In this document: positions 1,789 to 28,698 of the stretch, piece after piece
How positions within the stretch are numbered: position 1 is the stretch's first letter
Layout: every line of letters starts with the position of its first letter
Source: Patescibacteria group bacterium
GTDB taxonomy: Bacteria; Patescibacteriota; Patescibacteriia; SG8-24; DYFX01
DNA length: 64,000 bases
Reading direction: 5' to 3'
Assembly: GCA_030583805.1 (NCBI GenBank)
Contig: CP129476.1
Coordinates: 966,657 to 1,030,656 of the forward strand
Notes under the pieces: generated by a model
Database searches by the model: none
What the model saw: only the letters and a program-made list of their open reading frames with translations
Told to the model about the DNA's origin: nothing
Position numbers and translations under genes: made by a program

Positions 1789-2505
1789 ATGAACCGCCGA
1801 GGGGTCGCATCGACCGGGTTGCTGCTCGTCAGCGGGCTTGCGCTTGCGCTGGCCCTGCTCTTCCTGTGGCGGGTTTGGGGATATTACCGCATGCTTTCGT
1901 CCGGCGGTCCGGTCGATTTGCCGCAGTACGCGAGCCAGTTCACCTTGACGGGCAGGACGGGCGAGGTTCCCAAGGGAGCCTTCGCGGACGTCGCGACATC
2001 GGATGATCCGTCGATCGGTCCTATTGATGCGAAACTCACGATTGTCGAATTCGTCGACTACGAGTGTCCGTTCTGCAACATCGAGTCGTCCGTCGTGCGC
2101 GAGCTGGCCGCCAAATATCAGGACAAGGTGCGCTGGATCATCCGCGATTTCCCCGTTCCAGAACTCCATCCCCAAGCCGTGACTGCGGCGGAAGCTGCCG
2201 GCTGCGCCGAAGCGCAGGACAAGTATTGGCCGATGCATGACCGCCTGTACGCAGCGGCGTTCAACAACGAGCTGACGCGCGAAGAGATCGATCGCGCCGC
2301 CGAGCAATCCGGACTCGACATGGCCGTCTATCGCGCCTGCATGAACCTGCACGCCCGTCTCACCGAGATTCAAGACGACGCGGCGGCGGGCCTCGCGGCC
2401 GGCGTGCGCGGCACCCCGACGTTCTTCGTGAATGGCAGCCGCGTCGAAGGCGCCATTCCCAAAGATGCATTCGAAACGATTATCCGCCGCTATGTCACTC
2501 CGTAA
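1789..2505 (+). CDS. DsbA-like thiol:disulfide oxidoreductase (thioredoxin fold, CPFC active site), membrane anchored
   Basis: LTIVEFVDYECPFCNIES...GTPTFFVNG is the classic DsbA motif pair. The start is chosen at ATG 1789 (MNRRGVASTGLLLVSGLALALALLF signal anchor); the track ORF from 1303 overlaps secG antisense. Confidence 0.8.
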   Translation: MNRRGVASTGLLLVSGLALALALLFLWRVWGYYRMLSSGGPVDLPQYASQFTLTGRTGEVPKGAFADVATSDDPSIGPIDAKLTIVEFVDYECPFCNIESSVVRELAAKYQDKVRWIIRDFPVPELHPQAVTAAEAAGCAEAQDKYWPMHDRLYAAAFNNELTREEIDRAAEQSGLDMAVYRACMNLHARLTEIQDDAAAGLAAGVRGTPTFFVNGSRVEGAIPKDAFETIIRRYVTP

Positions 2506-19262: not shown

Positions 19263-20336
19263 ATGCGCGGCTTCAAGCGATTCCTTCTCGTCATGCTCGT
19301 GCTCGGCGTCCTCGCGGGCGCGGGGTTCGGCGTGCTGTGGGTCAAGCACCGCGTCGAGGCGTACTCGTTGGAGAACATCGTGGTCGAGCCGGCGCCGCCG
19401 CAGCCGAAACCGCCGGAAGAGAAAATCGCGCTCGACGAACGTCTGGAAGGGTTGCTGTCGCGCGAAGACGAAGCGCGGCTGCTCTACGCTCCTGAGCCGG
19501 GAACAAAAATTTTGTCCGCCGCGTTCATCGACAACGGCACGCTCATGCTCACGACCAGCGCGGCGCAAGGGAAGGAGACGCGCTGGAATCTTGAACGTTT
19601 TGATATCGCCTCCGCGACGTCGGTACAGCTTCTGGGCAGCACGGCCTTCCGCCTCGCCTCGAGCCACCGGCCGGCGCATCGCAACGTCAATCGTTTCTGC
19701 TATTCCGAGCGCGATGCGAAACGCGGCGTCTTTGAAATCTGGTGCGCCGATCTCGACGGGCGAAATGCGAAGCAGATCACGACGCACGACGGCAAAGAAG
19801 ACTTGCTGTCGCCGGCGATTTCTCCGGACGGCGCCTGGATCGCGTTCGAGGTGCTGGCCGAACGTCCGAAACCGCAAGGTTCGACGATTTGGAAAGTCCG
19901 CCTGGACGGTTCCGACCTGCAGCAGCTTACGCGCGGCGCCGACGACCGCCGCCCGAGCTGGTCCGACGACGGGCGCAAGATCTATTTCCAGCGCCGGCCC
20001 ATCGCCGGCGGCACGAGCTGGGACATGTACGGCATGGATGCGGACGGAAAAAATTCCGGCCCGCTTCTGCGCACGCATGAAGAAGATGAATCGTTTCTGG
20101 CGAGGCGCGCCGCGACGGACACCTTTGTCGTCGTCGAATCGGCAAGCGGCGTTCCGGCTCGTCTCAAGTTAATCGACGCCGTGACCAAAGCGGGGGAGTA
20201 TCTGACGGCCGGCACGAACGGTTCGGAAACGTCGCCGTCGGTTTCTCCTGACGGACGCGTCGTGGCGTTCATCGCGCCTATCTCCGCGGACCAGCCCGAT
20301 GCGCTGGCCGTTTGGCTCGCGCAAATCAAGTATTGA
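19263..20336 (+). CDS. TolB-like periplasmic beta-propeller protein (PD40/WD40-like repeats), membrane anchored
   Basis: N-terminal TM LLVMLVLGVLAGAGFGVLWV. Repeated SPDG-type blades (LSPAISPDGAWIAF, PSWSDDGRKIYF, SPSVSPDGRVVAF) are typical of the TolB C-terminal propeller. Confidence 0.65.
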   Translation: MRGFKRFLLVMLVLGVLAGAGFGVLWVKHRVEAYSLENIVVEPAPPQPKPPEEKIALDERLEGLLSREDEARLLYAPEPGTKILSAAFIDNGTLMLTTSAAQGKETRWNLERFDIASATSVQLLGSTAFRLASSHRPAHRNVNRFCYSERDAKRGVFEIWCADLDGRNAKQITTHDGKEDLLSPAISPDGAWIAFEVLAERPKPQGSTIWKVRLDGSDLQQLTRGADDRRPSWSDDGRKIYFQRRPIAGGTSWDMYGMDADGKNSGPLLRTHEEDESFLARRAATDTFVVVESASGVPARLKLIDAVTKAGEYLTAGTNGSETSPSVSPDGRVVAFIAPISADQPDALAVWLAQIKY

Positions 20337-20371
20337 AAAAAAACGGGAAGCGTGCTACCCTCGAAACAGAT

Positions 20372-20725
20372 ATGCGCAAGCTCGCACTCCTCCTCGCGTT
20401 CAGCCTCGTCGCCGCGGCTCTCCACTTCGGAGCCATGGCCGGTTTTCGCGCGATGTCGGAACTTGCGACGGGCCATGCGGCGCACGCGGATCACGCCGTC
20501 CCGATCGCGGCCAGCTGCCCGGTCGGCTCGATCTGCCCGATGGTTTCCAGCCCGCTTCTGCAGATGAACAAGACAGCGCCTCTTTCCGCGCTCATCGTAT
20601 TTATCGCGCTGCTCGCCGCGATCCGGCTGCCTTCGTTCGCGGTCTTCCCGCTCGCCTACGCCGGTCCGCCCAGCACCCGACCCAACAATCCCGACGCGCT
20701 CCTGTCTGTTTTCAAGAGGGAGTAA
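20372..20725 (+). CDS. small secreted/membrane protein with a His-rich (HAAHADH) and Cys-containing (CPVGSICPM) putative metal-binding segment
   Basis: Signal-like N-terminus MRKLALLLAFSLVAAALHF and a C-terminal TM. It lies at the head of the copper gene cluster. The start is the ATG at 20372 within track ORF 20312. Confidence 0.45.
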   Translation: MRKLALLLAFSLVAAALHFGAMAGFRAMSELATGHAAHADHAVPIAASCPVGSICPMVSSPLLQMNKTAPLSALIVFIALLAAIRLPSFAVFPLAYAGPPSTRPNNPDALLSVFKRE

Positions 20726-20773
20726 GAGACGGCGATCGCTTACGATCGGATGTTTCTTATTCCCTTTTGAATT

Positions 20774-22126
20774 ATGAAAACCACGCACAGATTCGCCGTT
20801 GACGGCATGCATTGCCGCAGCTGCGAACTCACCATCGAGCGGAAACTCGGAAAGATTCCGGGCGTCTGCGGCGTCGATGCGAATACGCCAAAGGGCGAAG
20901 TGCACATCGAATGCGAGGGGCCGGCGCCCTCTCTCCAGGCACTGAATGCCGCGTTGAAAGGCGAAGCCTATACGCTTCGCTGCCACGGCACGCCCTCGAC
21001 TGAGAAAAAACCGAAATTCGGACAGATCTTCGGAGCCTTCGCCGTCGTCTTCTTGCTCGGCTGGTTCGCATCGAGGATCGGGCTCCTGAAAATGGATTTC
21101 GCGATCAACGGCGCCGCCGGGTTCTGGCCGATCTTCGCCATCGGTCTTCTTGCCGCCGCGTCCTCCTGCATCGCCGTCTCCGGCGGGCTCCTTCTCTCCT
21201 CGTCCGCAAACTACAATCGCCGCTACGGCTCCATGGACGGCGTCGCCCGCATGACGCCCGTCTTCATGTTCGTCGCAGGTCGCGTGCTCTCCTACGCGTT
21301 CTTCGGCGGCCTCATCGCCGTGATCGGAAAAATGCTTACGCCGTCGCCGTTCGTGACGGGCGGCATCATCGTTCTGGCTGCCGCCTACATGCTGATCATG
21401 GGTCTCGACATGCTGAAGATTGCGCCGCCGTGGCTCAAGACCATTCAGCCGCGCCTGCCCAAGTGGGTTGCGCGCCGCATCGTCGATGCCGAAGGCCGCG
21501 AACATCCGGCCATGCCGTTCGCCATGGGCGCGCTCACGTTCTTCATCCCGTGCGGATTCACGCAATCGCTCCAAGTGTACGCGCTGACCGTCGGGAGCTT
21601 CGCGCAGGGCGGTCTCATTCTTGCGGCCTTCGCGCTCGGCACTGCGCCGTCGCTCCTCGCGCTCGGCTGGGCTTCGACGTCGCTCAAAGGGACATCCGGC
21701 GAGAAGTTCTTCCGTTTCGCGGGCGCGCTCGTCGTCGTCCTCGGGCTCTGGAATCTTCAAAACGGCATGACCGCGATGGGCTACCCGCTCTCGATGCCGA
21801 CCTTCGCCGCCGCGGCTCCCGCAGCGCAAGCGCAGGATCCGAACGTGCAGGTCGTAAACGGCGTGCAGGTCATTCGGATGAAGCTGTCCGTCAATCCCGC
21901 ATACAAGCCGAGTGATCGGTATACGGTGAAGGCAGGGATGCCTGTGCGTCTCGAAGTCGCCGGCATCGGAACCGGTTGCCGCGGAGAATTGATCGTGCCG
22001 AAAGCTCGTGCCCGCGTCACGTTGAACAAGCAACTCAACGTTCTTGAATTCACTCCGAAAAAAGCCGGCGCGTACGCATTCAGCTGCGCGATGGGTATGT
22101 TCCCCGGCGTCATTAACGCCATCTGA
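20774..22126 (+). CDS. fusion protein: N-terminal HMA (heavy-metal-associated) domain + multi-TM permease-like core + C-terminal cupredoxin-like domain
   Basis: HMA motif VDGMHCRSCE. 6-8 predicted TM helices with a conserved FFIPCGFTQSLQ motif. The C-terminal ~120 aa (VQVIRMKLSVNPAY...GCRGELIVP...FSCAMGMFPG) resembles a small cupredoxin-fold metal-binding domain. Confidence 0.55.
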   Translation: MKTTHRFAVDGMHCRSCELTIERKLGKIPGVCGVDANTPKGEVHIECEGPAPSLQALNAALKGEAYTLRCHGTPSTEKKPKFGQIFGAFAVVFLLGWFASRIGLLKMDFAINGAAGFWPIFAIGLLAAASSCIAVSGGLLLSSSANYNRRYGSMDGVARMTPVFMFVAGRVLSYAFFGGLIAVIGKMLTPSPFVTGGIIVLAAAYMLIMGLDMLKIAPPWLKTIQPRLPKWVARRIVDAEGREHPAMPFAMGALTFFIPCGFTQSLQVYALTVGSFAQGGLILAAFALGTAPSLLALGWASTSLKGTSGEKFFRFAGALVVVLGLWNLQNGMTAMGYPLSMPTFAAAAPAAQAQDPNVQVVNGVQVIRMKLSVNPAYKPSDRYTVKAGMPVRLEVAGIGTGCRGELIVPKARARVTLNKQLNVLEFTPKKAGAYAFSCAMGMFPGVINAI

Positions 22127-22127
22127 T

Positions 22128-22340
22128 ATGAAAACCACCATCAAGATCGACGGTATGCATTGCGGTTCCTGCAAGGCCTTGATTGAAGACGTCGCAAAAG
22201 ACGTCCCCGGCGTCGTTTCGTGCGACGTCGACGTCGCGCACGGCAAAGCGGATGTCGAACACACGGCGGACTTCGAAGCTTCGGAATTCATCGCCGAGAT
22301 CGCGAATCTCGACGCGGGATATAAGGCGCATCTGGTATGA
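22128..22340 (+). CDS. copZ: CopZ-like copper chaperone (single HMA domain)
   Basis: 70 aa with [22 protein letters not shown]... (GMxCxxC). The start lies 2 nt after the upstream stop. Confidence 0.85.
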
Positions 22341-25012
22341 GCGACAACCTGAAAGACGATGAAGTCGTCGCGACGCCGAAAGAGGGCGCGAGTCGCGTCA
22401 GTTTTCGTGTGCACCAGGACGTTAGTGCCGAGGGCGTCGTGGTCGAAGGGTCCGACGGCACGCGGCGCTTCGAAGGAAAAGTCGACGTGCGCCGCCGCGG
22501 TGAGATCGACTACCCCGCGAGCGAAGAGAAGCCGGAGAGTCTCATCGCCTTGCTTCGCAAGGTCGTGAAGTTCGACGCCGTGCAAGAACCTTCCTTGCCG
22601 ACGCAGGCTGCAGCGTCCCCGACGCGGGCCGCAGCGTCCCCGACGGAGGCGCCGTCCGGAGATCGCCGCGCCCTGCTTTCGCTCGGCGGCATGCATTGCT
22701 CTTCTTGCGCCAACCTGATCGCGCGCGGACTTCGCAAAGTCAAAGGCGTCAAAGAGGCGAACGTGAACTTCGCCGCCGAAAAAGCGCGCGTCGTCTTCGA
22801 TCCGCGCCAGACCGACGAAGCGGCATTGGTTGAAGCCGTCAAAAAGGCGGGCTATCGGGCGGAACCCGCGTCCAAGGCCGATCCGGAAACGGATCGCGCC
22901 CGCCGCATCGCCGAGATGCGCTCCTACAAGCGCAAGTTCCTCGCCGGCATGATCTTGAGCTTGCCGATGCTCTACTTCATGTTGCTCGACTTCCTGGCCT
23001 TCATGCCCGGAAGAGCGTTCTTGTTCCCCCTTGTCGGCATCATCTCCTTCATCCTGGCCGCGCCCGTCCAAATCGTTCTCGGTGCGGGCTTCTACAAGGG
23101 CATGTGGTCCAGCTTGAGGATGAAGACCTTCAACATGGACTCGCTGATCGCGATCGGTACCACCACCGCCTTCATCTACAGCATCGCCAACTTCCTGATC
23201 TACGCGATCTCCAAGGGGTCGATCGTCGGCGTGGGAGGGGAGAAGATTCCGGAACTGTACTTCGAGACGTCCGCGTTCCTGATCACCTTCGTCCTGCTCG
23301 GCAAGTGGCTCGAGAGCAAGGCGAAAGGCGAGACGTCCGAAGCGGTCAAGAAATTGATGGGCCTGCAAGCCAAGACCGCGCGCGTGATGCGTGACGGTCG
23401 AGCGCTTGACGTACCGATTGAAGAGGTTGTGGTCGGCGACACGGTCGTCGTGCGTCCCGGCGAGAAGATTCCTGTCGACGGCGAGATCATCAAAGGCTCC
23501 TCGGCCGTGGACGAATCGATGCTGACGGGCGAGAGCCTCCCGGTCGAGAAAAAAGAAGGCGACTCCGTCATCGGCGCCACTATGAACAAGACGGGTAGTT
23601 TCGAATTCCGCACGACGAAAGTCGGCGCGGATACGGCGCTCTCGCAGATCGTGCAATTGATCGAAGACGCGCAAGGTTCGCGCGCGCCGATTCAGGGATT
23701 TGCCGACCGGATCTCGGCCTGGTTTGTCCCGGCCGTGATCGCGTTCGCCTTCCTGACCTTCGTCGTTTGGTACTTCGCGCTCGGCGCGTCGCTCAGCTTT
23801 GCGCTCATGGCCTTCACGGCCGTGATCGTCATCGCCTGTCCGTGCGCGCTCGGCTTGGCGACACCGACGGCCATCATGGTGGCGACCGGAAAAGGCGCCG
23901 AGCACGGCATCCTCGTCAAAGGCGGAGAGCCGCTTGAAGCGGCGTGCAAGGTCAAAGCCGTCGTCTTCGACAAGACGGGCACTTTGACGAAAGGTACTCC
24001 GGAAGTGACGGACGTGATCGGCATCGGCCTGACCGATGAAGCCCGCATTCTCGAAATTGCCGCCGGGCTCGAAGTGAAATCCGAGCACCCGTTGGCGGAA
24101 GCGATCTGCCGATACGCGGAAGAGGAGAACGTCGATCCGATCGACGTCACGGACTTCAAGGCGATTCCGGGCCACGGCGTCCAGGCGACGAGCAACGGCA
24201 CGGAATACTTCTTCGGGAATCGCCGGCTCGTGACGGATATCCTCGCGTTGGAAATCTCCGGCTTCGACCGGAAGATGCGGAAGCTGGAAGAAGCCGGAAA
24301 GACCGTCATGATCTTGGCGACGAAAACCGGCGTTGTCGGATTGATCGGCGTCGCCGACACGATCAAAGACACCTCGGCGCTCGCCGTGGCTGAACTGAAG
24401 AAGATGGGACTGGCGGTCTTCATGATCACGGGCGATAATGAACGCACGGCGCGCGCGATCGCGAAGCAGGCGGGCATCGAGAACGTGCTCGCGGAAGTCC
24501 TGCCGGAACACAAGGCTGATGAAGTCAAAAAGCTGCAAGCGACGGGCATCAAGGTGGCGATGGTCGGAGACGGCATCAACGACGCGCCGGCCTTGGCGCA
24601 GGCCGATCTCGGCATCGCCATGTCGAGCGGCACCGATGTCGCCATGGAAACGGGCGGCGTCGTGCTCATGAAAAACGACTTGAACGACGTCGTGACGGCC
24701 ATCAAGCTTTCGCGCGAGACACTCGGCAAGGTGCGGCAGAACCTGTTCTTCTCGCTCTTCTATAACGTCGCCGGCATTCCGATCGCCGCGCGCGTTTTCG
24801 CGGGCGTCGGCCTCGTGCTCAAGCCGGAGTTGGCCGGCCTCGCGATGGCGCTCTCCTCGGTATCCGTCGTGGCCAACTCGCTGCTTCTGCGCGGCTTCCG
24901 TCCCGACCGCCGCAACTGGCTCTCCTTGGCCGCACCGTTCGTCATGACCGCGTTGTTCCTGGCCGCCTTCATCGGATTCGCTCGCCTGAGCGGCGGAACG
25001 ATGGGTGCCTGA
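22337..25012 (+). CDS. copA: copper-translocating P1B-type ATPase (CPC type)
   Basis: N-terminal HMA ([12 protein letters not shown]), TM CPC motif [18 protein letters not shown] phosphorylation site, GDGINDAP hinge. Confidence 0.9.
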
Positions 25013-25084
25013 GGCGCCCGCCTGCACGTCATCTTCAGGATCATCGCGTTTGCGTGCGTCTGAGCTGATAGCACACGCGTTTGC

Positions 25085-25090
25085 TATACT
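25085..25090 (+). promoter_or_regulatory. extended -10 TGcTATACT, 7 nt upstream of the copB-like ATG
   Basis: GTTTGCTATACTTCCTCATATG. Implies a leaderless or very short-leader mRNA. Confidence 0.35.
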
Positions 25091-25097
25091 TCCTCAT

Positions 25098-27185
25098 ATG
25101 ACTTACGTCTGCCCGATGCATCCTGAAGTGACGCGCGACGTTCCCGGCCGGTGTCCCGAATGCGGAATGGAACTCGTGCCGATGAAAGAAAAGAAAGGCC
25201 ACGGCGCGTATGCGGCGCCAGGCAAGCATGAAGGCCACTCGACCGCGATGTTCGCCCGGAAGTTTTGGATCAGTTTCGCGCTGACAATCCCGGTCGTCCT
25301 GTATTCCGAGATCGTGCCGATGCTCTTCGGCTGGCGGCCGCCGTCCTTTTCCGGTTCGGCCTACGTGCCGGCGATTCTCGCCTCGATCGTCTTCTTCTAC
25401 GGCGGCCTGGTCTTCCTTGCCGGCGGCTTCAGGGAATTGCGCGGCCGGAAGCCCGGCATGATGACGCTGATCTCGCTGGCCGTCGTTGCAGCCTATGCCT
25501 TCAGCGTCTGGTCGACGCTCATTGGCGCCAAAGAAACCCTTTATTGGGAGCTGACGACGCTTATCACGGTGATGCTGCTCGGTCATTGGCTTGAGATGCG
25601 GGCCGTGAGCAGCACGAGCGGCGCTTTGAAGGAGTTGGCGAAACTTTTGCCGGACACGGTCGAAGTGCTGCGCGACGGTACGTCGACGAAAATTCCGCTC
25701 TCGGAGCTTCGCGAAGGCGACCGTTTCATCGTACGGCCGGGCGGCAAGATTGCCGCCGACGGCGACATCGAGGATGGCGAGTCTGAAGTGAACGAGGCGG
25801 CGGTTACCGGCGAGTCCCGGCCCGTCAAAAAAGGAGGGGGTGACTCGGTCATCGCCGGTACGATCAACGGCGACGGATCGTTGACCGTGCGCGTCAAGAA
25901 CATCGGCGAGAAAACCTTTTTGGCCGGCGTCATGCGGCTGGTTGCCGACGCCCAAGCTTCGAAATCGAAACTGCAGATTCTCTCCGACCGCGCAGCCATG
26001 GTGCTCACGTACATCGCGGTCGGCGCGGGCGCCGTCACTCTGGCCGTTTGGTGGTTTGCCGCGTCTCCCGTCTTCGCCGTCGAACGCATGGTGGCGGTGC
26101 TCGTGATCGCTTGCCCGCACGCGCTCGGCTTGGCCGTGCCGCTCGTCGCTTCGATCTCCACGATGATGGCGGCGCGGAACGGTTTCTTGGTGAAGCAGCG
26201 TCTCGCGCTTGAAGCCGCTCGCAACATCGATATCGTCCTGTTCGACAAAACCGGCACGCTGACGAAAGGGGAGTACGGCGTCGATCGCGTCTGGGGCTTC
26301 GGCCTTTCGGAAGACGACGTGTTGGCGCTGGCTGCAGCGGTCGACGCTTCGTCGGAACACGTCGTCGCCAAGGCGACGGTCGCGCGTGCCAGAGAAAAGG
26401 GCCTCGTTATCCCGGCGGTGGAAGCTTTCCAGCGGGTGCCCGGCAAGGGCGTGAAAGCGCGCGTCGGAGGCCGCGAGATTTCCATCGGCGGAGAAAATGC
26501 GCTTGCCCCGGGCGCGCGACAAGTAGCGTCGAAGGTCTGGGACGAAATCGCGGAAGAAAATGCCAAGGGCAAGACGGTCGTCTACGTGCTGGAGAACGAC
26601 GCCGTGCTCGGAGCGATCGCGCTTTCCGACGTCCTCCGCGAGGAATCACGCGAAGCGATCGCGCTGCTCAAGAAGATGAACGTCAAAGTCGGCATGGTCA
26701 CCGGCGATTCCGACGATGTCGCGGCCTGGGTCGCGGGGGAGCTCGGCATCGACGAAGTGTTTGCCCGCGTCCTTCCGGGCGACAAGGCGGGCAAGGTCAA
26801 GGGGCTTCAAGCCAAGGGGCTCAAGGTCGCGATGGTCGGAGACGGCATCAACGATGCGCCCGCGCTCACGCAAGCCGACCTGGGTATCGCGATCGGCGCC
26901 GGCACGAACGTCGCCGTCGAGTCGGCAGGCATTATTTTGGTAAAGAACGATCCGCGCGACATTCCCAAGATCGTGCACCTGTCCCGCCTGACCTACGCCA
27001 AGATGATCCAAAATCTTTTTTGGGCGACGGGCTACAACATCGTGGCGATGCCGCTTGCGGCCGGCGTCCTGGCGAGCCGCGGCATTATGCTTCAGCCGGC
27101 TGTGGCTGCCGTTTTCATGTCGCTCAGCACGGTGATCGTGGCGGTGAACGCCCTACTCTTGCGCGGAAAGAAGCTTTCGGCATGA
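25098..27185 (+). CDS. copB: P1B-type heavy-metal ATPase, CPH type (CopB-like), with N-terminal CxxC...CxxC metal-binding domain
   Basis: N-terminal YVCPMHPEV...GRCPECGMEL (HMBD-like). TM motif ACPHALGLAVP (CPH). [15 protein letters not shown]. Confidence 0.85.
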   Translation: MTYVCPMHPEVTRDVPGRCPECGMELVPMKEKKGHGAYAAPGKHEGHSTAMFARKFWISFALTIPVVLYSEIVPMLFGWRPPSFSGSAYVPAILASIVFFYGGLVFLAGGFRELRGRKPGMMTLISLAVVAAYAFSVWSTLIGAKETLYWELTTLITVMLLGHWLEMRAVSSTSGALKELAKLLPDTVEVLRDGTSTKIPLSELREGDRFIVRPGGKIAADGDIEDGESEVNEAAVTGESRPVKKGGGDSVIAGTINGDGSLTVRVKNIGEKTFLAGVMRLVADAQASKSKLQILSDRAAMVLTYIAVGAGAVTLAVWWFAASPVFAVERMVAVLVIACPHALGLAVPLVASISTMMAARNGFLVKQRLALEAARNIDIVLFDKTGTLTKGEYGVDRVWGFGLSEDDVLALAAAVDASSEHVVAKATVARAREKGLVIPAVEAFQRVPGKGVKARVGGREISIGGENALAPGARQVASKVWDEIAEENAKGKTVVYVLENDAVLGAIALSDVLREESREAIALLKKMNVKVGMVTGDSDDVAAWVAGELGIDEVFARVLPGDKAGKVKGLQAKGLKVAMVGDGINDAPALTQADLGIAIGAGTNVAVESAGIILVKNDPRDIPKIVHLSRLTYAKMIQNLFWATGYNIVAMPLAAGVLASRGIMLQPAVAAVFMSLSTVIVAVNALLLRGKKLSA

Positions 27186-27889: not shown

Positions 27890-28651
27890 ATGGATTCCAA
27901 CGAAAAGTTTTCGATGTCGCTCTCGGTCAAGCAAATCTTCCTCGCGGGCGTCGCCGCCGGCGTGCTCGGCGTGGCCGCTCTCGGTTTCCTCCTCATGGTG
28001 ACGAAGGGCGTCGATGCCAGCTCGTGGTTCTCGGGTTCCGCCCGCGCTCCGCTCGCGGTCGCTCCGTCCGCTGGCGTGCCGACGGCTCCGGCCGGCGGCG
28101 AACAGGTCGGCGAAGTCGCTCCGGTCACGAATGACGACCATATCCGCGGCGACAAGAACGCCGAGATCACGCTTCTCGAGTACTCCGACTTCGAATGCCC
28201 GTTCTGCTCGCGCTTCCACCCAACGCTCGTCCAGGCTTTGAACGAGTACAAGGGCAAGGTGCGCTGGGTCTATCGCCACTTCCCGTTGAACTCGATCCAC
28301 CCGAACGCGCAGAAGGCGGCCGAAGCCTCCGAGTGCGCCAACGAGCAGGGTAAGTTCTGGGAGATGGCCGACAAGATGTTCGAGAAGCAGGCCTCCGGCC
28401 TTACCGTCGCGCAGCTCTCCGGGCTCGCCAAGGAAGCCGGCGTGCGCGACATCGCGAAGTTCGACGCGTGCGTCTCGAGCGGCAAGTACGCAGCCCTCGT
28501 CGCCGCCGACCTCGCCAGCGGCGAAGCGGCCGGCGTGACCGGAACGCCGGGCACGATCGTGATCAGCAAGGACGGCACGAAGCAGCTCATCCCGGGCGCG
28601 CTTCCGTACGAGTCCGTCAAGCAGATTATCGACTCGATGCTCGCGTCCTAA
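27890..28651 (+). CDS. DsbA-like thiol:disulfide oxidoreductase (CPFC), membrane anchored
   Basis: TLLEYSDFECPFCSRFHP...GTPGTIVISKDG. Paralogue of the 1789-2505 gene. The alternative start MSLSVKQ is at 27914. Confidence 0.8.
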   Translation: MDSNEKFSMSLSVKQIFLAGVAAGVLGVAALGFLLMVTKGVDASSWFSGSARAPLAVAPSAGVPTAPAGGEQVGEVAPVTNDDHIRGDKNAEITLLEYSDFECPFCSRFHPTLVQALNEYKGKVRWVYRHFPLNSIHPNAQKAAEASECANEQGKFWEMADKMFEKQASGLTVAQLSGLAKEAGVRDIAKFDACVSSGKYAALVAADLASGEAAGVTGTPGTIVISKDGTKQLIPGALPYESVKQIIDSMLAS

Positions 28652-28662
28652 GACGCGGCGAA

Positions 28663-28698
28663 AAGAAAAAAGCCCCGCACCGTATGGTGCGGGGTTTT
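28663..28698. terminator. bidirectional rho-independent terminator
   Basis: AAAAGAAAAAAG-CCCCGCACC-GTAT-GGTGCGGGG-TTTTG. Confidence 0.6.

Follow-up and report, generated by a model that had tools for sequence, protein, structure and literature searches.

A widespread membrane protein of copper-resistance operons that joins HMA, DsbD_2 and CupA-type cupredoxin domains: a candidate ATP-independent Cu(I) relay

The locus studied here raises the question of what a membrane protein with a predicted metal-binding domain at each end might do beside the genes for copper export. It lies in a 64,000-nucleotide stretch of the genome of a Patescibacteria group bacterium (contig CP129476.1), called the window below. 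A preliminary description had drawn attention to a 450-aa open reading frame comprising an HMA domain, a polytopic membrane core and a C-terminal cupredoxin-like domain, immediately upstream of copZ-copA, and suggested that it could be a self-contained permease for the uptake or export of copper. The reading frame is present as claimed. All four of the motifs quoted for it are found in the translation, i.e. GMHCRSCE (aa 11-18), FFIPCGFTQSLQ (aa 256-267), GCRGELIVP (aa 401-409) and FSCAMGMFPG (aa 436-445), and the three parts are recognized by Pfam. We conclude that the protein probably passes either copper, or reducing power for the handling of copper, across the membrane without the use of ATP. 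In our view the best reading is an ATP-independent outward relay of Cu(I) by ligand exchange, to which we assign a probability of about 0.45. The features of the locus are collected in Table 1.

Table 1. Features of the fusion gene and its neighbours, in window coordinates.
Feature	Position	Strand	Basis
Fusion gene, HMA / TM0 + DsbD_2 core / CupA-type cupredoxin	20774..22126	+	ATG-start ORF, 450 aa, translation
HMA domain, predicted cytoplasmic, aa 7-66	20792..20971	+	Pfam HMA E 7e-10, GMxCxxC
TM0, extra transmembrane helix, aa 84-104	21023..21085	+	Hydropathy peak 1.82; KKPK flank on N-terminal side
DsbD_2 core, six helices, aa 120-326	21131..21751	+	Pfam DsbD_2 E 3e-33
CupA-type cupredoxin domain, predicted extracytoplasmic, aa 350-447	21821..22114	+	PDB CupA match, Foldseek
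Small ORF, 117 aa from ATG, possible accessory protein	20372..20725	+	ORF list and sequence
copZ, 69-aa HMA copper chaperone (GMHCGSC)	22131..22340	+	Pfam HMA E 3e-14; CopZ-family NCBIfam matches
copA, P1B-1-type Cu(I) ATPase	22337..25012	+	TIGR01511 625 bits; TIGR01525 659 bits
Second P1B ATPase, CopB / P1B-3-like	25005..27185	+	Pfam HMBD E 4e-14, E1-E2_ATPase; TIGR01511 562 bits
DsbA-like thioredoxin-fold protein, membrane-anchored, CPFC; possible extracytoplasmic partner	27890..28651	+	Thioredoxin_4 E 6e-29; DSBA E 3e-17 (Pfam)

The copper context that had been described is equally clear. The stop codon of the fusion gene is followed after 4 nt by the start of copZ, copZ and copA overlap by 4 nt, and copA and the gene for the second P1B ATPase overlap by 8 nt. 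The translation of copA contains an HMA domain together with the CPC, YN and MALSS motifs, and that of the second ATPase has an N-terminal HMBD and the motifs CPH, YN and MSLST. The small reading frame that precedes the fusion gene has a His/Cys/Met-rich stretch (HAAHADHAVPIAASCPVGSICPM) between two hydrophobic segments, and is 66-73% conserved in the two closest loci. A Pfam scan gave no match for it, nor for the two small upstream-protein families of related loci, and HMMs of these two families did not detect it as homologous. A strong hairpin is located at 28673-28694, on the 3′ side of the DsbA-like gene. Homologs of CsoR and CopY were sought within the window and none was detectable.

At the N-terminus, the HMA domain (PF00403) scores 39.6 bits, the cut-off being 24.8. 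It has the GMHCRSC loop, with the ligands C14 (nt 20813-20815) and C17 (nt 20822-20824), and in the AlphaFold model of the fusion protein (mean pLDDT 80, pTM 0.74) its elements follow the order beta-alpha-beta-beta-alpha-beta. The top NCBIfam and PDB matches of this domain are to CopZ, the metal-binding domains of CopA, and MerP. Matches to the NCBIfam models MerTP_fusion and MerT_CopZ_Se are confined to the HMA region, and the membrane part was not therefore identified as MerT. The protein has no signal peptide; in both the sequence and the model the fold begins at residue 2. The HMA domain is followed by TM0 (a helix at 82-101 in the model), which is outside the Pfam DsbD_2 match that begins at aa 120. 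This extra helix is predicted to place the HMA domain in the cytoplasm, and to do so would be its sole purpose.

The core that follows matches the DsbD_2 family (PF13386, which from its InterPro name we take to be the same as UreH) with a score of 115.8-118 bits against a gathering cut-off of 24.9, covering positions 2-199 of the 199 in the model. The preliminary description estimated 6-8 transmembrane helices; the core is indeed polytopic, and the protein has seven helices in all, i.e. TM0 plus six. It was also proposed that the core be compared with the TauE/SafE, NicO and CcdA/DsbD families. Neither the TauE nor the NicO Pfam model matched even at E values up to 10, and these two identities were rejected. 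In the same search the sole matching families were DsbD_2 and DsbD_TM (PF02683), the latter at 25.7 bits and thus under its cut-off of 27.1, although some homologs pass it with 34-42 bits. DsbD and CcdA have a six-helix core with one essential cysteine in each of TM1 and TM4. The six-helix core here has C132 (nt 21167-21169) in TM1 and C260 (nt 21551-21553), within a PC motif, in TM4; both helices are broken in the AlphaFold model, at 128-130 and 258-260. Judged by its sequence, the core is related to DsbD/CcdA and not to TauE. On the structural side, Foldseek comparison of a separate model of the core (pLDDT 72) with the PDB gave nothing significant (best E 0.36, TM-scores of 0.25 or less), so that no link of the fold to CcdA, or to any solved transporter, could be made. 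A search of PDB sequences with the family profile found HMA and CupA-like chains only, with the core unmatched, and alignment of the core profile to one annotated Streptomyces CcdA using hhalign gave no meaningful alignment, and none over the Cys motifs. A polar motif PCGFTQxxQ following the TM4 cysteine is present in the subfamily having HMA and cupredoxin domains but not in the one aligned relative that has DsbD_2 only, a cco-linked protein of Shewanella. R170 and M206 are found in that relative too, so that these residues do not discriminate.

At the other end of the protein the Cupredoxin_1 model (PF13473) gives 26.2 bits and so misses the curated threshold of 27 by 0.8 bit, while homologs and split relatives score 31-49 bits and lie above it. 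A PDB sequence search matched Streptococcus pneumoniae CupA (2mry/4f2e) at E 6.8e-5, with both cysteine and both methionine ligands aligned, and the family-profile search found CupA at E 1.2e-11. When the AlphaFold model was submitted to Foldseek, CupA was matched with a target TM-score of 0.85 and an rmsd of 2.2 Å (4f2e), and the N-terminal domain of streptococcal CopA, which has the same cupredoxin fold, with 0.81 (4f2f); the matches also include the Cupredoxin_1 structure 4hcf. The assignment is secured, despite the Pfam score, by these matches to CupA in both sequence and fold. The ligand set Cys...Cys-x-Met-x-Met is formed by C402 (nt 21977-21979), C438 (nt 22085-22087), M440 (nt 22091-22093) and M442 (nt 22097-22099), and the invariant columns of the domain are Y377, P379, G388, P390, G401, C402, G432, F436, C438, M440, G441, M442 and G445. 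The domain has no conserved histidine, i.e. the His-Cys-His-Met set of a type-1 blue-copper site is missing, and such a site was rejected. The cupredoxin-like fold proposed in the preliminary description is thus upheld, but not its blue-copper Cys/Met/His spacing. We assign the domain as a CupA-type Cu(I) domain, predicted from homology and the model to bind copper. The nearest characterized family of the core is one that does not transport metal, which goes against the permease originally proposed, while the C-terminal domain is by homology a genuine copper-binding cupredoxin, which does not.

The ligands that align are those of the bis-thiolate, high-affinity S1 site and the Met-rich S2 site of CupA (PMC7558416), and both proteins are encoded in cop operons. 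There are also differences. CupA is a single domain that faces the cytoplasm on one N-terminal helix, and its partner CopA has a metal-binding domain of the cupredoxin type; here the domain comes after seven helices, with a predicted location outside the cell, and CopA bears an HMA domain instead. CupA has been described as confined to a few streptococci (PMC7558416), whereas hundreds of genomes, from CPR, DPANN, Firmicutes and Actinobacteria, encode the domain studied here. It is preceded by a linker (aa 346-352) that is flexible and of low confidence in the model.

The HMA and cupredoxin domains are predicted to lie on opposite faces of the membrane. There are approximately 15 Lys and Arg residues on the HMA side against two on the other, and an odd number of helices (seven). 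Furthermore, one homolog (P0156) has a fourth domain, ScsC_N+DsbA with a CSYC motif, fused C-terminal to the cupredoxin. Domains of the ScsC_N/DsbA type are extracytoplasmic in all characterized cases known to us. The positive-inside rule and this fusion agree with the arrangement originally suggested.

Conservation was analyzed using 131 cluster representatives having 30-55% identity to the window protein, and selected members of this alignment were scanned for Pfam domains. C14, C17, C132 and C260 are retained in all 131; C402 is present in 130, C438 in 127, M440 in 124 and M442 in 115. The eight Cys and Met ligands are therefore essentially invariant over diverged homologs. R170, P259 and G261 are likewise invariant, and M206 is 92% conserved. 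A word-indexed search found 682 homologs, the close ones having the same architecture. At E values of 1e-30 or lower there were 821 clusters (50% identity), and for most of the best 150 the alignment spans aa 6-449. The three-part architecture is far beyond chance. The fusion was initially thought to be unusual, but it is common, occurring in at least 573 species genomes; it is a real and widely conserved membrane protein, widespread and not rare.

The form with a fused HMA domain is found in CPR bacteria, DPANN archaea and Clostridia; a full-length orthologue, whose gene immediately precedes copA, is encoded by Acetoanaerobium noterae, which is in culture. In Tsukamurella and Deinococcus the protein is split, with DsbD_2 and Cupredoxin_1 in one gene and HMA in a separate gene directly downstream. 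The same probably applies to Streptomyces, where an adjacent 85-aa gene named 'cation transporter' is the putative HMA gene. The split forms lie in copper and mercury islands with P1B ATPases, MerA, MerR and multicopper oxidase. Throughout this subfamily the core and an HMA domain go together.

Genomic context was compared at 78 related loci. All lineages inspected have the gene in a setting of copper or mercury resistance. A P1B ATPase is encoded within 3.5 kb of the fusion gene at 59 loci, and directly downstream on the same strand at 49 of the 65 that could be evaluated. CsoR regulators are nearby at 14 loci and CopY at five. A small reading frame on the same strand lies directly upstream at 50 of the 78; many of these encode proteins with two transmembrane helices and Cys/Met/His motifs. 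The surroundings of relatives having DsbD_2 only are more varied. One in a Halomonas metal island directly follows a gene for a DsbD_N domain, with DsbG, DsbE, TlpA and CcdA nearby, another adjoins SCO and NosL, and others are found after ccoI-ccoS. Neither urease nor hydrogenase genes were among the surroundings.

We propose that these elements may form an outward relay, with three thiolate copper sites in line, i.e. C14 and C17 of the HMA domain, C132 and C260 of the core with the invariant R170 and conserved M206, and the outer C402...C438-x-M440-x-M442 set that would be equivalent to the binuclear Cu(I) site of CupA. The protein would be co-expressed with CopZ, CopA and CopB. Cu(I) could be supplied by CopZ, or by the protein's own HMA domain, and would then move by ligand exchange to the membrane cysteine pair, which might alternate its exposure as do the cores of DsbD and CcdA. 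From there Cu(I) would pass to the outer cupredoxin, acting either as a buffer at the cell surface or as an onward donor; possible acceptors are the small Cys/Met membrane protein and the DsbA/ScsC-like protein. Like CopA, the fusion has a predicted cytoplasmic HMA domain, of a kind able to exchange Cu(I) with CopZ, together with intramembrane cysteines, and is encoded in the same operon. It differs in having no ATP-binding, phosphorylation or actuator domain, so that any transport would be passive or ion-coupled. The logic is also that of MerT-MerP and MerTP proteins, in which a CxxC HMA domain and paired membrane cysteines pass a thiophilic metal by ligand exchange, and split relatives adjoin merA; but the membrane folds are unrelated, and the HMA domain of the Mer proteins is periplasmic and works inward, whereas here it is predicted to be cytoplasmic and the context points to export.

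Copper as the cargo is suggested by the identity of the three domains and by the match of the outermost to CupA, by the retention of the ligands across the 131 homologs, and by the subfamily-specific PCGFTQxxQ motif. The methionines of the S2 site are conserved, and would not be needed in a domain whose role was purely redox. The HMA domain accompanies the core whether fused or as an adjacent gene, and in the fusion would have a dedicated helix, TM0. The only HMA-fused membrane proteins known to us are metal transporters, i.e. P1B ATPases and MerT-MerP fusions, and the domain studied here matches the MerTP_fusion model. The direction is suggested by synteny with P1B ATPases, by nearby CsoR and CopY, and by the inferred membership of COG2836 proteins in the CsoR copper regulon of gut Firmicutes (PMC4938975); a gene switched on by excess copper is more likely to serve outward transport than uptake. 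Against the outward relay, the operon already exports copper by means of CopA and the second ATPase, and, if ATP is not used, driving a cation out against the membrane potential requires coupling, perhaps to protons. The literature searched contains no functional study of HMA-DsbD_2-cupredoxin proteins, and no transport or binding experiment on any family member. The relay also gains nothing from R170 and M206, given their presence in the Shewanella relative.

The same core can be read in another way, in which its cysteine pair carries reducing equivalents outward, and not copper, as in ScsB and DsbD. These would serve to keep reduced the protein's own CupA-type cysteine pair, and perhaps DsbA/ScsC-like and small Cys-rich proteins. 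The reduced outer domain could then bind the Cu(I) that CopA exports, or reduce Cu(II), and the protein would be a one-polypeptide analogue of the path from ScsB via ScsC to CueP. We consider this less likely than the relay, but it is the main rival, and a serious one, because the closest characterized relatives of the core move electrons and DsbA/ScsC-like partners recur. The only other Pfam family resembling the core is that of the electron transporters DsbD_TM; TM1 and TM4 each have a single cysteine at a helix break; and there is one Cys pair in each of the three modules, with the C-terminal domain on a flexible linker like that of cDsbD. A DsbA/ScsC-like gene is present in the flanks at 17 of the 78 loci, and in some (L007, L051 and L077) it lies between the fusion gene and copA; in P0156 such a domain has become part of the protein. 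The DsbD_N, DsbG, DsbE, TlpA, CcdA, SCO and NosL neighbours of the DsbD_2-only relatives point the same way. These neighbours, the resemblance of the core to DsbD_TM and the recurrence of DsbA/ScsC-like proteins also count against the outward relay. In the Scs system, DsbD-type reductases have been linked to copper tolerance, and the operon begins with a gene for a small CxxC protein that some methods predict to have two transmembrane helices (PMC10907172); in some of our loci too the gene for a small Cys-containing membrane protein comes first and that for a DsbA/ScsC-like protein later. Moreover, the S1 cysteines of CupA can reduce Cu(II) in vitro (PMC7558416), and in doing so would become oxidized, which favours a supply of reductant. 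Yet while the protein shares with DsbD, CcdA and ScsB a core from a sister Pfam family, tethered soluble domains with Cys pairs and an involvement in copper stress, the tethered domains here are of metal-binding types (HMA and CupA-type) in place of Ig or thioredoxin folds, one of the two is predicted to be cytoplasmic, and the core falls short of the DsbD_TM cut-off and matches no solved fold. A conduit for reductant has no role for the invariant, always-associated HMA domain or for its anchoring helix, and we know of no HMA domain that acts as a disulfide reductase. The electron donor to DsbD and CcdA is thioredoxin, and no gene for thioredoxin or thioredoxin reductase was among the recurrent neighbours of the related loci. 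Nor is a DsbA-like gene nearby at 61 of the 78, and the comparison with Streptomyces CcdA gave no support.

Reversal of the relay is improbable. The outer cupredoxin would capture Cu(I), or Hg(II) or Ag(I), perhaps after reduction of Cu(II), and hand it via the cysteines of the core to the HMA domain and CopZ, following the logic of MerP-MerT-MerA or CopC-CopD. The split Tsukamurella version is flanked by a P1B ATPase and an HMA-MerA, where an importer feeding MerA would be plausible. The DsbD_2-only relatives that follow ccoI-ccoS are located where the cytoplasmic CopZ/CcoI route needs copper, and members of the UreH family mediate Ni transport (PMC2667541), a precedent for uptake by a secondary transporter. 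But the context is that of a copper-efflux operon, with CsoR or CopY repressors that are de-repressed by excess copper. Import under those conditions would be harmful, and the window encodes no cuproenzyme or MerA near the fusion gene. A two-sided chaperone or scaffold for CopA, in which the HMA domain feeds the ATPase, the cupredoxin takes the exiting Cu(I) and the core is an anchor that translocates nothing, is quite improbable. It would account for the tight linkage to P1B ATPases, and has precedents in CupA, a membrane-anchored chaperone for CopA (PMC7558416), and in periplasmic chaperones such as CueP that can accept Cu(I) from CopA in vitro (PMC10907172). However, six helices are not needed for anchoring, a mere anchor would not hold C132, C260, R170, P259 and G261 invariant across such diverged homologs, and the core recurs with different partner domains. 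Lastly, NCBI and JGI name the homologs 'sulfite exporter TauE/SafE'. The export of sulfite or organosulfonate is almost certainly wrong, given the lack of a Pfam match to TauE or NicO, the copper-binding character by homology of both flanking domains, and the consistent association with copper or mercury resistance.

The copper exporters known to us that act at the bacterial cytoplasmic membrane are P1B ATPases. If the outward relay is correct it would add a second route, one that needs no ATP and is based on a DsbD-like core, and would for the first time give a function to a family listed in databases as a sulfite exporter. More tentatively, a scaffold of the DsbD/CcdA type may have been turned into an ATP-independent Cu(I) translocase of a new class, with three Cys pairs, the main partner of CopA in CPR and DPANN and found also in Clostridia, Actinobacteria and Deinococcus, with the DsbD_2-only relatives at ccoI-ccoS and SCO perhaps doing the same job for cuproenzyme assembly. 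CupA-type Cu(I) sites, so far a peculiarity of streptococci, would become an extracytoplasmic module of wide occurrence. If instead the protein conducts reductant, it would condense the logic of ScsB, ScsC and CueP into one polypeptide, and would show by what means cells lacking a periplasm maintain the copper-binding thiols of their surface in reduced form. The orthologue in Acetoanaerobium noterae makes the question open to experiment in a cultured organism, and either outcome would be relevant to the handling of Cu(I) by the tiny-genome CPR and DPANN organisms of anoxic groundwater.

The fusion gene is an open reading frame of 450 codons with an ATG start (see table), and its nearest relative, with 91% identity, comes from a Minisyncoccota (Patescibacteria) MAG. 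Every motif quoted in the preliminary description is found in the translated protein, and three Pfam domains are matched, confirming the three-part fusion proposed there.

Features of the fusion protein and its surroundings (window positions, or residue numbers where marked aa)
Feature	Position	Strand	Remarks
Second DsbA-like paralogue	about 1996-2484	+	36% identity; elsewhere in window
Antisense ORF	19982-25027	-	1681 codons; spans entire cop region
Small ORF	20372-20725	+	directly upstream of fusion gene; two hydrophobic segments flanking HAAHADHAVPIAASCPVGSICPM
Inverted repeat	20733-20748	+	CGATCG-N4-CGATCG; 26 nt ahead of fusion start codon
Fusion gene	20774-22126	+	HMA, membrane core, cupredoxin
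HMA domain	aa 7-66	+	Pfam E 7e-10
DsbD_2 domain	aa 120-326	+	Pfam E 3e-33
Cupredoxin_1 domain	aa 350-447	+	Pfam 26.2 bits, slightly below cut-off of 27
copZ	22131-22340	+	69 aa; starts 4 nt past fusion-gene stop
copA, P1B-1 copper ATPase	22337-25012	+	CPC, YN and MALSS motifs; 4-nt overlap with copZ
Second P1B ATPase, CopB / P1B-3-like	25005-27185	+	N-terminal HMBD (CPxC-type), CPH motif; 8-nt overlap with copA
Membrane-anchored DsbA-like protein	27890-28651	+	CPFC; downstream of cop genes
Hairpin	28673-28694		strong, G+C-rich, 9 pairs, T-runs; just past DsbA-like gene

Hydropathy and an AlphaFold model (mean pLDDT 80, pTM 0.74) both give seven helices, i.e. a six-helix DsbD_2 core preceded by an additional helix, TM0 (aa 84-104). 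The face with the N-terminus and loops 2, 4 and 6 carries ~15 Lys and Arg residues, compared with 2 on the opposite face; from this bias the HMA domain is predicted to be cytoplasmic and the C-terminal domain extracytoplasmic. Independent support for an extracytoplasmic cupredoxin is provided by the 720-aa homolog P0156, a four-domain fusion in which HMA, DsbD_2 and Cupredoxin_1 are joined to a ScsC_N/DsbA part (CSYC motif) with no helix between the cupredoxin and that part. To our knowledge ScsC_N and DsbA-type domains are extracytoplasmic in every characterised case. We note that P0156 also ties a ScsC-like thioredoxin protein physically to the system. In the model TM1 and TM4 are broken helices, with breaks at residues 128-130 and 258-260, and there is one cysteine at each break, C132 (SSCIAVSGG) and C260 (IPCGFTQ). 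Model confidence is low for aa 346-352, the linker before the last domain, which is probably flexible.

Among PDB sequences the last 99 residues match two S. pneumoniae proteins, CupA at E 6.8e-5 and CopA, in its cupredoxin-type domain, at E 1.4e-3, with the C-x-M-x-M motif aligned as well as the first Cys. A family profile strengthens these to E 1.2e-11 and 4.6e-10 respectively. Foldseek ranks CupA first (4f2e, target TM-score 0.85, rmsd 2.2 Å) and 4f2f second (0.81), followed by CuA domains and a Bacillus anthracis Cupredoxin_1 structure. No conserved His was found in this domain in the homolog alignment. The type-1 ligand set is thus absent, and the blue-copper site that had been suggested is ruled out; the ligands are of CupA type instead. 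By sequence and modelled fold the domain is a putative CupA-type Cu(I) site. The high-affinity S1 site of CupA is a bis-thiolate of two Cys, and hand-over requires a Met-rich S2 site; the protein is cytoplasm-facing and has been described as limited to a few streptococci (PMC7558416).

Taken alone, the core reaches 118 bits against DsbD_2 and 25.7 bits against DsbD_TM, for which the cut-off is 27.1; there is no Pfam match to TauE, NicO or other transporter families at E up to 10. No similar solved structure was found by family-profile search of PDB sequences or by Foldseek with a separate model of the core, and hhalign gave no alignment with one annotated CcdA. The core did align, at 97.7% probability, with a 230-aa DsbD_2-only protein of Shewanella baltica plasmid pSbal01 (L083:4833-5525; HCxxMCGG and PCG motifs), in which both Cys, R170 and M206 are matched. 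The gene for this protein lies right after ccoI-ccoS of a cbb3 oxidase assembly cluster; Neisseria gonorrhoeae and the megaplasmids of Sinorhizobium meliloti give further such matches. This placement hints at a general partnership of DsbD_2 proteins with copper P1B ATPases. A Halorubrum DsbD_2-only relative adjoins SCO and NosL. On a Halomonas sp. KO116 plasmid (L086:4332-5609) a DsbD_N-domain gene is followed immediately by a DsbD_2 gene, in a metal island with DsbG, DsbE, TlpA, CcdA, a DUF411-domain gene and a P1B ATPase. This pair looks like a split DsbD/ScsB-like reductase.

The fusion is not unusual, contrary to the preliminary description. It is carried by at least 573 genomes in a pattern scan of one genome per GTDB species, including CPR groups (Uhrbacteria, Magasanikbacteria, Kerfeldbacteria, Peribacteria and others) and archaea (Nanoarchaeia, Woesearchaeota). 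The cultured Clostridium-class Acetoanaerobium noterae also has a full-length orthologue, with copA directly downstream. A word-indexed search gave 682 relatives, the close ones sharing the three Pfam domains; when 1.84 billion cluster representatives were scanned exhaustively with HMMER, 821 matched at E<=1e-30, and most of the best 150 align across aa 6-449. Among 131 representatives with 30-55% identity to the query, C14, C17, C132, C260, R170, P259 and G261 are invariant, while C402 is conserved in 130, C438 in 127, M440 in 124, M206 in 121 and M442 in 115. N-terminal extensions of >50 aa are present in 33/131 (e.g. P0025, P0030-P0032), those in alignment A1 being an additional HMA-like domain without cysteines. 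C-terminal extensions of >50 aa (24/131) are a second cupredoxin in the members inspected, mostly retaining the C...CxMxM set.

The overlapping copA and CPH ATPase genes indicate that the operon codes for two distinct copper pumps. The small ORF ahead of the fusion has no Pfam match and may encode an accessory copper-binding membrane protein; its conservation is limited to the two closest loci. The inverted repeat could be an operator or hairpin; its arms are unchanged in these two loci while the spacer differs. As terminator of the plus-strand gene string beginning upstream of the fusion, the hairpin is the best candidate. The antisense ORF is almost certainly no gene but a by-product of the window's high G+C (61%).

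Across 78 related loci with the full gene, a P1B ATPase lies within 3.5 kb in 59, and a P1B ATPase or CopZ is near in 65; the ATPase is immediately downstream on the same strand in 49 of 65 evaluable loci. Repressors of the CsoR family (14/78) and CopY/BlaI type (5/78) are found nearby, as are genes for DsbA-like proteins (17/78), in some loci separating the fusion from copA. The ORF immediately upstream is small and on the same strand in 50/78 (e.g. L038:1651-2076 and L042:6552-6932, from L003-L078). Many encode 2-TM proteins whose loop bears Cys/Met/His motifs, in two families: class A, which has 'CPxM...CPM..EH..WQ' and ends in a GILHPK tail, in 16 loci, and class B, which has 'CxxHC' and ends in a VxLRD tail, in at least 13. 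Both are unannotated, with no Pfam match, and neither has detectable homology to the small ORF of the window. Their position recalls scsA in scsABCD. Annotated plasmids of cultured Tsukamurella, Deinococcus and Streptomyces have a split form, a DsbD_2+Cupredoxin_1 gene and then a small gene, annotated HMA in the first two; the Streptomyces counterpart (85 aa) is known by its annotation name 'cation transporter' alone. P1B ATPases, MerA, MerB, MerR and multicopper oxidase surround these.

Three conserved thiolate sites form a chain across the membrane, within a copper-efflux operon. We infer, rather than observe, what the chain carries. The reading we favour, at a probability of roughly 0.45, is that Cu(I) travels outward; it would pass from the cytoplasmic HMA domain to the membrane Cys pair and then to the extracytoplasmic CupA-type site. 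The HMA domain is the classic module for handing over Cu(I) or Hg(II); in this subfamily it is invariably present with the core, as fusion or adjacent gene, and it requires a dedicated additional helix to reach the cytoplasm. The only other HMA fusions known to us are with metal transporters (P1B ATPases, MerT-MerP), which argues in the same direction. The conserved Met-rich S2 ligands would be superfluous in a purely redox domain, and CsoR/CopY control implies expression at copper excess, a condition in which taking up more of the metal would do harm. An inward relay is accordingly improbable, and a two-sided chaperone without transport slightly more so. That the protein is a sulfite exporter is scarcely credible; the core gives no TauE similarity, so the database label 'sulfite exporter TauE/SafE family protein' is without support.

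The main competitor, less probable than the outward relay, is that the core carries reducing equivalents, like its nearest characterised relatives, keeping the outer CupA-type cysteines, and perhaps a DsbA/ScsC-like protein, reduced to bind Cu(I) exported by CopA. The recurrence of DsbA-like genes near the fusion, the ScsC_N+DsbA fusion of P0156 and the DsbD_N-paired Halomonas relative are consistent with this, but it leaves the HMA domain without explanation. Such a conduit would mirror ScsB-ScsC-CueP of Salmonella (PMC10907172). The outward Cu(I) relay and the supply of reductant are not mutually exclusive. From the self-contained copper permease originally proposed, the copper context (the copZ-copA operon and P1B ATPases in related loci) and the placing of the soluble domains on opposite faces (Lys/Arg distribution, seven helices and P0156) stand, while the blue-copper site and rarity fall; 'permease' is plausible but unproven.

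The sole mention of related proteins found in the literature is of COG2836 (HMA+DsbD_2+DUF2318), inferred as CsoR copper regulon members in gut Firmicutes (PMC4938975), and no functional study of the HMA-DsbD_2-cupredoxin architecture was found in the searchable literature. The architecture is already in domain databases under a misleading name, and taken singly its parts are all of known kinds. What is new is the joining of a DsbD-like core to an HMA domain on the cytoplasmic face and a CupA-type site on the outer face, in the predicted topology, together with the thiolate relay across the membrane that this implies.
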